A stretch of 5,667 bases of DNA from a virus (lineage: Duplodnaviria > Heunggongvirae > Uroviricota > Caudoviricetes). Positions 268 to 5,667 of this stretch are shown piece after piece. The position numbers were made by a program, and so were the translations under genes. The notes beneath the pieces were generated by a model. The model was not told where the DNA came from, made no database searches, and saw nothing but the letters and a program-made list of their open reading frames with translations. Position 1 is the stretch's first letter; the number at the start of each line of letters is the position of its first letter. The stretch lies in the IMG/VR virus record IMGVR_UViG_2671180637_000030, one strand, 5' to 3'.

Positions 268-786
268 ATGGCAATGCCGCGCAAACTCAAGTTAATGAAC
301 GTCTTTCTGAACGGCTACAGCTATCAGGGCGTCGCGAAGTCCGTCACGCTACCAAAACTGACCCGTAAGCTCGAAAACTATCGCGGTGCGGGGATGAACG
401 GCAGCGCACCGGTAGACCTCGGCCTTGATGACGATGCGCTGTCAATGGAGTGGTCGCTCGGTGGCTTCCCGGATTCGGTTATCTGGGAGCTTTACGCCGC
501 AACCGGTGTGGATGCCGTACCGATTCGTTTTGCAGGCTCTTACCAGCGCGACGATACCGGCGAAACGGTGGCCGTCGAGGTGGTCATGCGTGGACGTCAG
601 AAAGAAATCGACACCGGCGAGGGCAAACAGGGAGAAGACACCGAGTCGAAAATCTCCGTGGTCTGCACCTATTTCCGGCTGACGATGGACGGTAAGGAGC
701 TGGTCGAAATCGACACCATTAACATGATTGAGAAGGTGAACGGCGTCGACCGGCTGGAGCAACACCGCCGCAATATCGGCCTGTGA
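268..786 (+). CDS. FII: Major tail tube protein
   Basis: 172-aa ORF, the same length as P2 gpFII, with the sequence as I recall it. AAGGAG at 254-259 lies 8 nt upstream of ATG 268. It follows the sheath gene as in contractile-tail phages. Confidence 0.92.
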   Translation: MAMPRKLKLMNVFLNGYSYQGVAKSVTLPKLTRKLENYRGAGMNGSAPVDLGLDDDALSMEWSLGGFPDSVIWELYAATGVDAVPIRFAGSYQRDDTGETVAVEVVMRGRQKEIDTGEGKQGEDTESKISVVCTYFRLTMDGKELVEIDTINMIEKVNGVDRLEQHRRNIGL

Positions 787-793
787 TTTTCAT

Positions 794-814
794 CCGGTCA
801 GCCTGGCTGACCGG
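794..814 (+). promoter_or_regulatory. Perfect inverted repeat (stem-loop) in the FII-E intergenic region
   Basis: CCGGTCAGCC (794-803), T (804), GGCTGACCGG (805-814): the second arm is the exact reverse complement of the first. It lies 8 nt after the FII stop (784-786) and 29 nt before the E start. No U-tract follows (TTAACCC), so it is not a canonical intrinsic terminator. Confidence 0.4.
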
Positions 815-842
815 TTAACCCTGATTCAGAAGTGAGAAAACC

Positions 843-1118
843 ATGAACAAAGAAAATGTCATTACCCTGGAAAATCCGGTCAAACGTGGTGAGCAGGTCA
901 TCGAACAGGTCACGCTGATGAAACCCAGTGCCGGGACACTGCGCGGTGTCAGTCTGGCTGCGGTCGCGAACTCCGAAGTCGATGCACTGATTAAGGTGCT
1001 GCCGCGCATGACGGCACCGATGCTGACCGAGCAGGAAGTCGCCGCGCTGGAACTGCCTGACCTTGTGGCGCTGGCCGGTAAGGTGGTCGGTTTTTTGTCG
1101 CCGAACTCGGTGCAGTGA
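843..1118 (+). CDS. E: Tail assembly chaperone gpE (zero-frame product)
   Basis: 91-aa ORF, the same length as P2 gpE, between the tube and tape measure genes (position analogous to lambda G). It contains a T6 slippery run near its 3' end. Confidence 0.88.
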   Translation: MNKENVITLENPVKRGEQVIEQVTLMKPSAGTLRGVSLAAVANSEVDALIKVLPRMTAPMLTEQEVAALELPDLVALAGKVVGFLSPNSVQ

Positions 1119-1270
1119 CGTTCCCGAAAAATCTCTCGGTCGATGACCTGATGGCGGATGTGGCAGTGATATTTCACTGGCCGCCATCAGAACTGTATCC
1201 CATGAGTCTGACCGAACTCATCACATGGCGCGAAAAGGCGCTCCGGCGAATCGGAAACACGAATGAGTAA
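843..1270 (+). CDS. E+E': Tail assembly chaperone E+E' made by programmed -1 ribosomal frameshift (142 aa predicted)
   Basis: After a -1 slip at 1091-1097 the -1 frame stays open for 57 codons (VAELGAVTFPKNLSVDDLMADVAVIFHWPPSELYPMSLTELITWREKALRRIGNTNE) to TAA at 1268-1270. That gives 84 + 1 + 57 = 142 aa, matching the known P2 E+E' product, and the extension ends overlapping the T start codon. Confidence 0.8.
1091..1097 (+). other. Slippery heptamer T TTT TTG (X XXY YYZ) for the -1 frameshift
   Basis: Zero-frame codons are GGT TTT TTG at 1089-1097. The heptamer T-TTT-TTG allows tRNA re-pairing in the -1 frame, and the downstream -1 frame is open to 1270. Confidence 0.8.
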
Positions 1271-3710
1271 CAATGTAAAATTACAGGTATTGCTCAGGGC
1301 TGTTGACCAGGCATCCCGCCCGTTTAAATCCATCCGCACAGCGAGTAAGTCGCTGTCGGGGGATATCCGGGAAACACAAAAATCACTGCGCGAGCTGAAC
1401 GGTCACGCATCCCGTATTGAGGGATTCCGCAAGACCAGTGCACAGCTTGCCGTGACTGGTCATGCACTTGAAAAGGCACGGCAGGAAGCCGAAGCCCTTG
1501 CCACACAGTTTAAAAACACCGAACGTCCGACCCGTGCTCAGGCGAAAGTGCTGGAATCCGCAAAGCGTGCGGCGGAGGACTTACAGGCGAAATATAACCG
1601 CCTGACGGATTCTGTTAAACGCCAGCAGCGGGAACTGGCCGCTGTGGGAATTAATACCCGCAATCTTGCACATGATGAGCAGGGGCTGAAAAACCGTATC
1701 AGTGAAACCACCGCACAGCTTAACCGGCAGCGTGATGCGCTGGCGCGTGTCAGTGCACAACAGGCAAAACTTAACGCAGTAAAACAGCGTTATCAGGCCG
1801 GAAAAGAACTGGCAGGAAATATGGCCTCAGTGGGCGCTGCCGGTGTGGGGATTGCTGCTGCGGGAACGATGGCCGGTGTTAAGCTGCTGATGCCCGGTTA
1901 TGAGTTTGCGCAGAAAAACTCAGAATTGCAGGCCGTGCTCGGTGTGGCAAAAGACTCCGCCGAAATGGCTGCACTACGCAAGCAGGCGCGCCAGCTCGGC
2001 GACAACACCGCCGCCTCGGCGGATGATGCGGCCGGTGCGCAGATTATCATTGCGAAAGCGGGTGGAGATGCTGCGGCTATTCAGGCGGCAACGCCGGTCA
2101 CGCTAAATATGGCACTGGCGAATCAGCGGTCGATGGAAGAAAACGCTCAACTGTTGCTGGGGACTAAGGCATCCTTTCAACTGTCAAATGATGATGTCAG
2201 TCATGTGGGCGACGTGTTGTCGGCAACGATGAATAAGTCGGCGGCTGATTTTCAGGGACTCAGTGATGCACTGACTTATCTCGGCCCGGTTGCGAAGACG
2301 GCAGGTGTAAGTCTTGAGCAGGCAGCAGCCATGACAGGTGTGCTGCATGACAATAACATCAGGGGGTCAATGGCGGGTACGGGTAGCAGTGCCGTTGTTA
2401 CCCGATTACAGGCTCCGACAGGGAAAGCATGGGATGCACTCAAAGAGCTTGGCGTTAAAACCTCGGACAAAAAGGGAAATATGCGCCCGTTGTTCACCAT
2501 TCTGAAAGAGATTCAGGCCAGCTTTGATAAACACAAGCTGGGAACGTCTCAGAAGGGGGAATACCTTAAAACCATTTTTGGTGAGGAAGCACTGAAATCA
2601 GCGAACGTTTTACTGGCAGCGGCAGCAAGCGGAAAACTGGATACGCTGACCGCCACGCTGAAAGCCTCGGACGGTAAAACGGAAGAGCTGGTTAAAATCA
2701 TGCAGGATAACCTCGGCGGTGACTTTAAGGAGTTTCAGTCCGCTTATGAGGCGGTGGGGACAGACCTGTTTGACCAGCAGGAAGGCGCACTGCGTAAGCT
2801 CACGCAGACGGCCACAAAGTATGTGTTAAAACTCGATGTCTGGATCCAGAAAAACAAATCACTGGCGTCAACCATCGGCATCATTGCCGGTGGCGCACTG
2901 GCGCTGACTGGCATCATCGGTGCCATTGGTCTTGTCGCCTGGCCGGTTATCACCGGCATCAATGCCATCATCGCGGCAGCAGGCGCAATGGGGGCAATCT
3001 TCACGACGGTTGGCAGTGCCGTTATGACGGCCATCGGGGCGATTAGCTGGCCGGTTGTGGCCGTGGTGGCCGCTATTGTCGCCGGGGCGTTGCTTATCCG
3101 TAAATACTGGGAGCCTGTCAGCGCATTCTTTGGCGGTGTGGTGGAAGGGCTGAAAGCGGCATTTGCGCCGGTGGGAGAACTGTTCACGCCACTGAAGCCG
3201 GTGTTTGACTGGCTGGGTGAAAAGTTACAGGCCGCGTGGCAGTGGTTTAAAAACCTGATTGCCCCGGTTAAAGCCACCCAGGACACCCTGAACCGTTGCC
3301 GTGACACGGGCGTCATGTTCGGGCAGGCACTGGCTGACGCGCTGATGCTGCCGCTTAATGCGTTCAACAAACTGCGCAGCGGTATTGACTGGGTACTGGA
3401 AAAACTCGGTGTTATCAACAAAGAGTCAGACACACTTGACCAGACCGCCGCAAGGACTCATGCCGCCACGTATGGCACCGGCGGTTATATTCCGGCGACC
3501 AGCTCTTATGCAGGCTATCAGGCTTATCAGCCGGTCACGGCACCAGCTGGTCGCTCTTATGTGGACCAGAGTAAAAACGAATATCACATCAACCTGACGG
3601 GCGGTACTGCGCTGGGAACACAGCTTGACCGCCAGTTACAGGATGCGCTCGAAAAATATGAGCGGGATAAACGTGCGCGCGCCCGTGCCAGCATGATGCA
3701 TGACGGTTAA
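1263..3710 (+). CDS. T: Tail tape measure protein
   Basis: 815-aa ORF, the same length as P2 gpT. The N-terminal third is rich in Q/R/A/E/K heptad-like sequence (predicted coiled coil), there is a central Gly/Ala-rich hydrophobic block, and it sits directly downstream of the chaperone frameshift pair. Its ATG (1263) is embedded in ATGAGTAA, overlapping the E' stop. Confidence 0.93.
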   Translation: MSNNVKLQVLLRAVDQASRPFKSIRTASKSLSGDIRETQKSLRELNGHASRIEGFRKTSAQLAVTGHALEKARQEAEALATQFKNTERPTRAQAKVLESAKRAAEDLQAKYNRLTDSVKRQQRELAAVGINTRNLAHDEQGLKNRISETTAQLNRQRDALARVSAQQAKLNAVKQRYQAGKELAGNMASVGAAGVGIAAAGTMAGVKLLMPGYEFAQKNSELQAVLGVAKDSAEMAALRKQARQLGDNTAASADDAAGAQIIIAKAGGDAAAIQAATPVTLNMALANQRSMEENAQLLLGTKASFQLSNDDVSHVGDVLSATMNKSAADFQGLSDALTYLGPVAKTAGVSLEQAAAMTGVLHDNNIRGSMAGTGSSAVVTRLQAPTGKAWDALKELGVKTSDKKGNMRPLFTILKEIQASFDKHKLGTSQKGEYLKTIFGEEALKSANVLLAAAASGKLDTLTATLKASDGKTEELVKIMQDNLGGDFKEFQSAYEAVGTDLFDQQEGALRKLTQTATKYVLKLDVWIQKNKSLASTIGIIAGGALALTGIIGAIGLVAWPVITGINAIIAAAGAMGAIFTTVGSAVMTAIGAISWPVVAVVAAIVAGALLIRKYWEPVSAFFGGVVEGLKAAFAPVGELFTPLKPVFDWLGEKLQAAWQWFKNLIAPVKATQDTLNRCRDTGVMFGQALADALMLPLNAFNKLRSGIDWVLEKLGVINKESDTLDQTAARTHAATYGTGGYIPATSSYAGYQAYQPVTAPAGRSYVDQSKNEYHINLTGGTALGTQLDRQLQDALEKYERDKRARARASMMHDG

Positions 3711-3724
3711 GGAGGTGACGAAAA

Positions 3725-4204
3725 ATGATGCTCGCGTTAGGTATGTTTGTTTTTATGCGCCAGACGCTGCCACACCAGACCATGCAGCGTGAATCAGATT
3801 ATCGCTGGCCGTCAAATTCCCGTATCGGTAAACGGGACGCTTTTCAGTTTCTCGGTATGGGTGAGGAAAACATCACGCTGGCCGGTGTGCTTTATCCCGA
3901 ACTGACCGGCGGAAAGCTGACGATGACCACGCTCAGGATGATGGCAGAGGAAGGCAGGGCGTGGCCGTTGCTGGATGGCACCGGCATGATTTACGGCATG
4001 TATGTCATCAGCAGGGTGAGTGAAACAGGGAGTATTTTCTTTGCAGACGGCACACCCCGGAAAATTGATTTTACGCTGTCGCTCACCCGCGTTGATGAAT
4101 CACTGGCTGCGCTTTATGGCGATATCGGTAAACAGGCGGAATCGCTCATCGGTAAGGCTGGCAGTATGGCGACCAGATTCACGGGTATGACGGGGGCGGG
4201 ATAA
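3725..4204 (+). CDS. U: Tail protein U (essential tail formation protein)
   Basis: 159-aa ORF, the same length as P2 gpU. A strong Shine-Dalgarno AAGGAGGT at 3709-3716 lies 8 nt upstream of ATG 3725. It sits between T and D as in P2. Confidence 0.88.
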   Translation: MMLALGMFVFMRQTLPHQTMQRESDYRWPSNSRIGKRDAFQFLGMGEENITLAGVLYPELTGGKLTMTTLRMMAEEGRAWPLLDGTGMIYGMYVISRVSETGSIFFADGTPRKIDFTLSLTRVDESLAALYGDIGKQAESLIGKAGSMATRFTGMTGAG

Positions 4205-5367
4205 TGCTGGATGCGCTGACATTTGATGCAGGCAGTACGCTGACGCCGGATTACATGCTGATGCTCGACAGCAGGGATATTACCGGCAATATCAGCGACC
4301 GTCTGATGAGCATGACCCTGACGGATAACCGGGGCTTTGAGGCTGATCAGCTTGATATTGAACTGAACGATGCCGACGGGCAGGTCGAACTGCCGGTTCG
4401 TGGCGCTGTCCTGACGGTGTATATCGGCTGGAAAGGTTTTGCCCTGGTATGCAAAGGGAAATTCACCGTTGATGAGGTAGAACACCGGGGCGCGCCGGAT
4501 GTGGTCACCATCCGCGCCCGGAGTGCAGATTTTCGCGGGACGCTCAATTCCCGCCGTGAAGGCTCATGGCATGACACCACGCTCGGTGCGATTGTTGAGG
4601 CGATAGCCTCCCGTAACAGGCTGGAAGCCAGTGTCGCGCCGTCACTGGCAGGAATTAAAATCCCGCACATCGACCAGTCGCAGGAGTCTGATGCGAAATT
4701 CCTGACCCGTCTTGCTGAACGCAACGGCGGTGAGGTGTCGGTAAAAATGGGAAAACTGCTGTTTCTCAAAGCGGGGCAGGGGGTGACGGCCAGCGGTAAA
4801 AAAATCCCGCAGATTACCCTCACCCGTAGCGACGGCGACCGTCATCATTTTGCGATTGCTGACCGCGGAGCCTATACAGGCGTAACGGCAAAGTGGTTAC
4901 ACACCAAAGACCCGAAACCGCAAAAGCAGAAGGTAAAACTGAAACGCAAAAAGAAAGAGAAACACCTGCGCGCACTGGAGCACCCGAAAGCGAAACCGGT
5001 CAGGCAGAAGAAAGCGCCTAAAGTACCGGAAGCGCGCGAAGGTGAATACATGGCCGGTGAGGCTGATAACGTTTTTGCCCTGACCACGGTATATGCCACG
5101 AAAGCACAGGCCATGCGTGCCGCTCAGGCGAAGTGGGATAAACTGCAACGGGGCGTTGCGGAGTTCTCCATCAGCCTGGCTACTGGTCGGGCAGATATTT
5201 ACACGGAAACACCGGTCAAAGTGTCTGGCTTTAAGCGCGTCATAGACGAGCAGGACTGGACAATCACTAAGGTGACACACTTTCTGAATAATAGCGGCTT
5301 CACGACGTCCTTAGAACTTGAGGTAAGGCTTTCTGATGTGGAGTACGAAACAGAAGATGATGAGTGA
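4204..5367 (+). CDS. D: Tail/baseplate hub protein gpD (late control gene D family; gp27/VgrG N-domain-like)
   Basis: 387-aa ORF, the same length as P2 gpD. Its start ATG (4204-4206) overlaps the U stop TAA (4202-4204) in TAATG, indicating translational coupling. It is the last gene of the tail operon before ogr, as in P2. Confidence 0.88.
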   Translation: MLDALTFDAGSTLTPDYMLMLDSRDITGNISDRLMSMTLTDNRGFEADQLDIELNDADGQVELPVRGAVLTVYIGWKGFALVCKGKFTVDEVEHRGAPDVVTIRARSADFRGTLNSRREGSWHDTTLGAIVEAIASRNRLEASVAPSLAGIKIPHIDQSQESDAKFLTRLAERNGGEVSVKMGKLLFLKAGQGVTASGKKIPQITLTRSDGDRHHFAIADRGAYTGVTAKWLHTKDPKPQKQKVKLKRKKKEKHLRALEHPKAKPVRQKKAPKVPEAREGEYMAGEADNVFALTTVYATKAQAMRAAQAKWDKLQRGVAEFSISLATGRADIYTETPVKVSGFKRVIDEQDWTITKVTHFLNNSGFTTSLELEVRLSDVEYETEDDE

Positions 5368-5448
5368 TATCTTTTATTTATCTGTTTGTTTTATAAAGAT
5401 AAATTAAATAAAATGGCACCATCAACAAAACCGGAAGAGGTGCTCGCG
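5368..5448 (+). promoter_or_regulatory. AT-rich D-ogr intergenic region with putative ogr promoter and ribosome-binding site
   Basis: Candidate sigma70-like elements are TTTATC (5377-5382), a 17-bp spacer and TAAATT (5400-5405), with TATAAA at 5392-5397 as an alternative -10. A purine-rich GAAGAGG (5433-5439) lies 9 nt upstream of ATG 5449. Element assignment is by eye and tentative. Confidence 0.3.
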
Positions 5449-5667
5449 ATGTTTCATTGTCCTTTATGCCAGCATGCCGCACATGCGCGTACAAGTCGCT
5501 ATATCACTGACACGACAAAAGAGCGTTATCACCAGTGCCAGAACGTGAATTGCAGCGCCACGTTCATCACTTATGAGTCGGTGCAGCGATACATCGTGAA
5601 GCCGGGAGAAGTCCACGCCGTAAGGCCGCACCCGTTGCCGTCAGGGCAGCAAATTATGTGGATGTAA
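5449..5667 (+). CDS. ogr: Ogr late-gene transcription activator (Ogr/Delta zinc-finger family)
   Basis: 72-aa product MFHCPLCQHAAHARTSRYITDTTKERYHQCQNVNCSATFITYESVQRYIVKPGEVHAVRPHPLPSGQQIMWM with a C-X2-C...C-X4-C cysteine quartet (C4, C7, C30, C35), matching P2 Ogr as I recall it. It has its own ribosome-binding site and ends at TAA 5665-5667. The ORF-track start at 5386 is judged an over-extension. Confidence 0.9.
   Translation: MFHCPLCQHAAHARTSRYITDTTKERYHQCQNVNCSATFITYESVQRYIVKPGEVHAVRPHPLPSGQQIMWM

Follow-up and report, generated by a model that had tools for sequence, protein, structure and literature searches.

A conserved sense-strand RNA hairpin behind the tail tube gene of P2-type phages, related to tI of phage 186 and a putative leaky terminator and 3'-end protector

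The 5,667 nt of DNA analyzed here (the window) belong to a P2-type phage (Peduovirus) and hold its tail operon, as judged from Pfam matches, the P2 annotation and a DNA identity of 97 to 98% with P2, Wphi and many P2-like phages; the FII gene taken alone is likewise 97 to 98% identical to its counterparts in P2-type phages. The same stretch is found at an identity of at least 95% in 1,550 of 5,426 complete E. coli genomes. Its genes and features are listed in Table 1. The spacer between FII and E is 56 nt long, in agreement with the preliminary description of this DNA, while the other operon junctions are overlaps or spacers of at most 14 nt. An internal Ogr-dependent late promoter was considered and rejected, as the window contains no Ogr-type TGT-N12-ACA dyad and no sigma-70-like site is found near the spacer. 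The listed E. coli records carry no RNA-feature annotation at the hairpin site described below, and the P2 reference record leaves its own copy, which differs from that of the window by A810G, unannotated.

Table 1. Genes and RNA features of the window (positions are those of the window)
Feature	Coordinates	Strand	Remarks
FI (sheath), 3' end	up to 255		
FII, tail tube gene, 172 aa	268-786	+	Upstream high-copy gene; Pfam Phage_tube PF04985, E = 2.3e-60
FII stop codon TGA	784-786		
FII-E spacer	787-842		56 nt
Linker UUUUCAU	787-793	+	7 nt, from FII stop codon to hairpin base
RNA hairpin	794-814	+	5' arm 794-802, loop CUG 803-805, 3' arm 806-814
Pyrimidine-rich, G-poor tail UUAACCCUGAUU	815-826	+	Degenerate U-tract; only two U adjoin the stem
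Weak Shine-Dalgarno region of E, GUGAGAAAACC	832-842	+	Not sequestered by the hairpin region
E, tail assembly chaperone gene, 91 aa	843-1118	+	First downstream low-copy gene; Pfam Phage_TAC_7 PF10109
E start ATG	843-845		
E', frameshift extension of E	-1 frameshift near 1098, end at 1270		E, E+E' and frameshift site as annotated in P2
T	1263-3710		
U	3725-4204		
D	4204-5367		
ogr	5449-5667		

A perfect 10-bp inverted repeat had been reported in the FII-E spacer, and it is present exactly as described, with CCGGTCAGCC, a single T and GGCTGACCGG filling positions 794 to 814. A loop of 1 nt being physically impossible, the RNA folds into nine base pairs closed by a 3-nt loop, with an energy of -16.5 kcal/mol (z = -5.0 against dinucleotide shuffles). 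Seven of the nine pairs are G-C, and the stem is thus of the kind found in intrinsic terminators, which we defined as GC rich, at least 5 bp long and with a loop of 3 to 8 nt. No other perfect inverted repeat of at least 10 bp with a loop of at most 8 nt occurs in the window. When the window was dinucleotide-shuffled, such repeats numbered 0.073 per shuffle on average, with any at all in 5% of the shuffles, and chance is less likely still because the repeat falls inside the 56-nt spacer. The conservation in relatives settles the question, and by this comparison a chance origin is ruled out. An Rfam scan (E ≤ 10) returned no family near 794-814, and a covariance model built from relatives has a single plus-strand match per genome in the window and in phage 186. 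With one copy per phage genome and no Rfam match, a REP element or other dispersed repeat was rejected.

Conservation of the repeat region in other P2-like phages had been set as a point on which a functional role could be refuted, and the hairpin is kept across these phages. A scan of one genome per species yielded 80 enterobacterial prophage loci with tube proteins 70 to 100% identical to that of the window, and all but one of them have the hairpin. Nearly all of the 87 distinct enterobacterial P2-like spacers contain a GC-rich hairpin 4 to 8 nt after the tube stop codon (stop-to-helix distance within this range in 82/87, and 7 nt in the window). The family core is CCGG[U/C]CAGC-loop-GCUGGCCGG; across the close relatives the stems have 7 to 12 pairs and the loops 3 to 6 nt, the loops varying freely in sequence and length. 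A GC-rich hairpin in the equivalent position, with unrelated stem sequence, is also found in 15 of 16 more distant phages. The carriers are Klebsiella Kp4886-2 and ST512-KPC3phi13.2, two phages of Yersinia enterocolitica, Salmonella SopEPhi, Pseudomonas Dobby and PPpW-3, Burkholderia Momento and PhiBP82.2, a Ralstonia phage, Smp131, Acica, PhiR44_2 and Xanthomonas FoX5 (with Stenotrophomonas and Acidovorax among the hosts represented), and in Vibrio MAR the hairpin is located after an extra small open reading frame (ORF). The only distant phage without one is Salmonella phage SEN5 (L170), with a spacer of 14 nt, and the prophage of Yersinia aldovae (L149) has lost it by a clean deletion that left a spacer of 26 nt. 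The element is therefore not indispensable, at least in some backgrounds. The pairwise identity of the stem (0.89) equals that of the first and second codon positions of the tube gene (0.89), compared to 0.58 at third positions and 0.39 in the flanks, and by this measure the hairpin is under purifying selection.

Seven stem pairs are near-invariant in sequence across tube proteins down to 70% identity, and complete turnover of the stem is seen in the more distant clades only. As judged from the alignments, a generic terminator would need less constraint on its sequence than this, and the near-invariance could also reflect recognition by a factor. Some smaller observations were made on the same loci. 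Our first IMG/VR scan returned 80 near-identical P2 copies, which were of use for polymorphisms only; in these P2-type copies (L003-L082) the center of the loop (window 803-805) is T or A, giving CCTGG or CCAGG, both of which are Dcm methylation sites (CCWGG), while one relative has CCCGG, and the match to Dcm is probably incidental. In Yersinia phage vB_YenM_42.18 (L085, 1231), as well as in L121, L135 and L137, the start of the E homologue, whether annotated or taken from the longest ORF, is an ATG within the hairpin loop, which results in an apparent spacer of 15 to 17 nt and an overlong protein; the true start at these four loci is probably a downstream ATG that follows a GAG-type Shine-Dalgarno sequence. 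An assembly labeled Chryseobacterium sp. 18061 (L092) contains a tube locus of P2 type (protein identity, 94%) whose spacer does not differ from the one in a Citrobacter genome (L093), and is probably contaminated or mislabeled.

A protein-binding site, taken here as one on the DNA, had been offered as a third possibility. A palindrome acting at the DNA level, be it as an operator for a protein, as a cruciform or as a site of recombination, would agree with the window itself, where the 10+10 symmetry is perfect and the two strands fold equally well. The relatives contradict it. In most of them the sequence is GGTCAG/CTGGCC, which lacks symmetry at the DNA level and can pair only in plus-strand RNA: at the fifth pair (U798-A810 in the window), 39 of 67 rows have U.G, a T.G mismatch in the DNA, compared to 17 with C-G and 10 with U-A. 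Two-fold DNA symmetry, which an operator would retain, is thus not conserved, and the distant relatives keep a hairpin of unrelated sequence, with loops that are free in sequence and length. Considering also that the window lacks the Ogr-type dyad, we give a DNA-level function next to no credence. Since U.G occupies the fifth pair in most rows, the perfect palindrome is a derived state of P2 proper and is not the conserved feature.

The structure that is conserved can be recovered from an alignment that was fitted to no structure: RNAalifold, given a MAFFT alignment, returned the same nine pairs. In the seed alignment and the 72-row model alignment, 83 to 84% of the cells are paired, against 14 to 43% when the partners are slid, and the covariation score of 0.18 to 0.21 was reached in 0 of 500 shuffles, which gave 0.12 to 0.14. 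The core pairs of 64 distinct sense-strand rows contain G.U in 49 cells and A.C in 4, and the stem polymorphisms among the P2-type copies are mostly towards G.U. The plus strand also folds better, with a mean hairpin energy of -17.5 kcal/mol compared to -14.2 kcal/mol on the minus strand and the lower energy in 44 of 55 hairpins. The covariance model scores the minus strand 18 to 28 bits below the plus strand (41.9 bits on plus and 23.9 on minus in the window), and with this deficit and the poorer folding in 44/55 relatives a function on the antisense strand was rejected. Because G.U far outnumbers A.C, the plus strand folds better and the stem is conserved like nonsynonymous positions, the conserved element is a sense-strand RNA structure and not a DNA palindrome.

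The sequence that follows the stem is much less uniform. The repeat had been described as lacking a U-tract, and indeed the sequence after it is TTAACCCTGATT and a terminator scan gave no call. The first nucleotides, UUAACCCU, have 3 U in 8 nt, two of them adjoining the stem, and then become C-rich, which falls short of the U-tract that we took to mark an intrinsic terminator, with approximately five or more U among the first 8 nt behind the stem. In the family as a whole, U makes up 52 to 62% at positions +1, +2, +4 and +5, C 45 to 58% at +5 to +8 and G 0 to 2% at +3 to +7; the first 8 nt contain 3.5 U on average, and at least five in 18 of 64 relatives. Terminator-grade tails are present also in FoX5, PPpW-3, Dobby and MAR. 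At the other extreme, ST512 (CCAACCCA) and L165 (CCCACAAC) have U-free tails and retain the hairpin, and hence it is the hairpin and not a complete terminator that is the conserved unit. A constant hairpin with a graded U-tract fits a leaky terminator of variable strength and also a hairpin that protects a 3' end. With two U only and no terminator call, intrinsic termination in the window phage could be very inefficient.

An element of this kind has been annotated before. The record of phage 186 (NC_001317) lists positions 15906-15932 (ACCGGTCAGCACTGCTGGCCGGTTATT) as "tI; partial terminator of pJ transcript", placed after gene I, which encodes the tube, and before H, the homologue of E. The window hairpin has the same position, on the sense strand between the tail tube gene and the E-type chaperone gene of the same operon and 7 to 8 nt after the tube stop codon, and it shares with tI the stem core CCGGTCAGC / GCTGGCCGG, as seen in the MAFFT alignment, as well as a 3-nt loop; the covariance model gives the two similar scores (43.2 bits for 186 and 41.9 for the window). 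By position and sequence, the window hairpin is the orthologue of tI. The two differ at the fifth pair, which is U.G in 186 and U-A in the window; the 186 stem is also longer by three outer pairs (-20 kcal/mol), its tail is richer in U (UUAUUACC, compared to UUAACCCU in the window), and the P2-type site may therefore terminate less. Within 186, tI has the strongest stem (-20 kcal/mol) when compared with the full terminators tW, tB and t95b. Xanthomonas phage FoX5 (NC_055838, 17203-17228) has an annotated rho-independent terminator between its tube and chaperone genes; the gene context is the same although the myovirus tail module is a distant one, while the stem is unrelated and is followed by a full U-tract (GGCGGCGG...CCGCCGCC UUUUUAC). 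The 186 terminators tW, tB and t95b resemble the window hairpin in their GC-rich, short-loop stems on the sense strand downstream of a gene but have 5 to 7 consecutive U after the stem, where the window has two U and then AACCC. Because it is placed inside an operon with essential downstream genes, the window site must be leaky. Hairpins that stabilize mRNA between cistrons are found in the malE-malF REP element and in the Rhodobacter puf operon. Like the window hairpin, these are stable, lack a U-tract and follow, on the 3' side, those genes of an operon that are nearer to the promoter and more highly expressed; in contrast to the malE-malF REP, the window hairpin is present in single copy in the phage genome and matches neither an Rfam family nor a REP.

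Transcript data are available for a relative. BTP5 is a 186-like prophage of S. Typhimurium D23580 in which the tube gene (STMMW_31801) and the E homologue (31791) are 62 nt apart, and Owen et al. 2020 (PMC7067206) provide RNA-seq TPM values for it as supplementary data. From this table we calculated that tube RNA exceeds E RNA in 17/17 conditions, with a median of 2.4-fold (range, 1.2 to 5.8), and T RNA with a median of 4.6-fold, while sheath and tube are at about the same level; these are steady-state RNA values from uninduced lysogens at low TPM, in which termination and decay are inseparable, and the comparison is one of gene positions and TPM values. In the best-expressed condition, sheath, tube, E, E', T, U and D reach 39, 37, 16, 21, 4.4, 4.9 and 4.5 TPM, respectively (PMC7067206). 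The tail-fiber-assembly, sheath and tube genes of BTP5 are described as a three-gene transcript that ends with the tube gene (PMC7067206). A stable sense-strand hairpin thus delimits, on the 3' side, the mRNA segment of higher abundance, as a stabilizer should, with the abundance taken from BTP5 and not from the window phage.

We consider it reasonably probable (roughly 60%) that the hairpin is a leaky terminator combined with a 3'-end protector that sets the dosage of FI and FII relative to E, T, U and D, by analogy with 186 and BTP5. The preliminary description had proposed that a hairpin here lowers the expression of the downstream genes relative to FI and FII, and the proposal is supported by the annotation of the 186 orthologue as a partial terminator, by the RNA step-down in a 186-like prophage and by the conservation of the hairpin in P2-like phages. 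Late transcription from the promoter upstream of FI would cross FI and FII, and the hairpin would form behind RNA polymerase over the weak UUAACCC tail, so that a fraction of the complexes would terminate. The resulting FI-FII message would end in a stable hairpin and be protected from 3'-to-5' exonucleases, and the polymerases that had not terminated would go on to transcribe E, E+E', T, U and D. A single promoter could in this way give more message for sheath and tube than for chaperone, tape measure and baseplate hub. From the relatives, we infer that a dosage step is most likely made in the window phage too, and likewise that it would be divided between termination and stabilization.

The main rival is that the hairpin only stabilizes, without any termination: the mRNA would be cut endonucleolytically downstream, the hairpin would block the 3'-to-5' exonucleases PNPase and RNase II, and the FI-FII segment would outlive that of E-T-U-D, as with the intercistronic hairpins of the mal and puf operons. 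We regard this as possible but doubtful. The very stable, GC-rich stem, the missing U-tract of the window and the several relatives that keep the hairpin with U-free tails would all be expected from it, and the RNA step-down in BTP5 fits equally well. Against these points, the 186 orthologue was called a partial terminator by the laboratory that mapped the 186 transcripts, U is enriched family-wide at the two positions adjoining the stem, and the terminator-grade tails of 18/64 relatives and of FoX5, PPpW-3, Dobby and MAR would not be needed by a pure stabilizer. Translation could also enter into the leaky terminator. With the base of the hairpin so close to the tube stop codon (4 to 8 nt), the 5' arm would be covered by a ribosome that terminates on FII, and in a translation-coupled attenuator this ribosome would keep the hairpin from forming. 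Read-through into E-T-U-D would then depend on how close the lead ribosome is to RNA polymerase, and the dosage of chaperone and tape measure would be linked to the translation of the tube; we consider such coupling unlikely.

Two further readings are less probable still. In Rho-assisted attenuation, the hairpin would pause RNA polymerase and the C-rich, G-poor tail would help Rho to terminate a fraction of the transcripts. This agrees with the composition of the tails across the family (G at 0 to 2%, C at 45 to 58% at +5 to +8) and with the documented Rho-dependent polarity in the P2 morphogenetic (late) operons, which is relieved by the Psu protein of P4 (PMC11718236). However, the untranslated spacer of 56 nt, with translation of E beginning 28 nt after the hairpin, offers little naked RNA for loading, nothing links Rho to the FII-E junction specifically, and a degenerate U-tract, or a landing site kept single-stranded for ribosomes, could account for the composition of the tail as well, which makes a role for Rho quite improbable. 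If it had one, the site should be sensitive to Psu, the anti-Rho protein of the satellite P4. In translational control of E, the Shine-Dalgarno sequence would be hidden through pairing with the hairpin region. This reading came from the minimum-energy fold of 780-842, in which UUUUCAU (787-793) pairs with GUGAGAA (833-839), and a similar outer helix is seen in ST512. Ensemble accessibility does not bear this out: over 66 distinct spacers the value for the Shine-Dalgarno sequence is 0.61 with native and 0.56 with shuffled flanks (median z = +0.5), i.e., there is no extra pairing, and in the window its unpaired probability of 0.69, compared to 0.47 with shuffled flanks, makes it more open. The outer helix was rejected on these grounds, and a control of E translation through it is very improbable.

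Other repeats were observed in the window. The terminator scan picked out, at 1070-1099, a terminator-like hairpin with TTTTTTG behind it (GCTGGCCGGTAAGGTGGTCGGT-TTTTTTG). The slippery site annotated in P2 for the E/E' -1 frameshift falls at the same place, and the 9 nt with which this hairpin begins, GCTGGCCGG, also make up the 3' arm of the FII-E hairpin of the P2 reference. Another perfect inverted repeat of 10 bp, at 1148-1157 and 1181-1190 (CTGATGGCGG / CCGCCATCAG, 23 nt apart), lies just before T in a stretch (1119-1262) that is translated by frameshifted ribosomes only. In BTP5, RNA drops by another 4- to 5-fold from E' to T (calculated from the TPM values in PMC7067206), and the mostly untranslated stretch 1119-1262 might be a second attenuation point. 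Finally, the spacer between D and ogr contains, at 5372-5413 and upstream of the ogr ATG at 5449, AT-rich inverted repeats (TTTTATTTATCT / AGATAAATTAAA and TTTTATTTA / TAAATAAAA), where the equivalent spacer of 186 has the promoter pB and CI operators.

In conclusion, the FII-E hairpin is an element of a known kind that is already annotated in 186, and it opens no new biological question. For a contractile tail, sheath and tube are required in many copies and chaperone, tape measure and hub in few, and the hairpin would let one promoter give this ratio. Recognizing it should also improve the annotation of prophages, since several records place the start of E at an ATG within the hairpin loop, and it is of relevance to the engineering of P2-type phages, tailocins and P4-type satellite systems, where the stoichiometry of the tail proteins counts.
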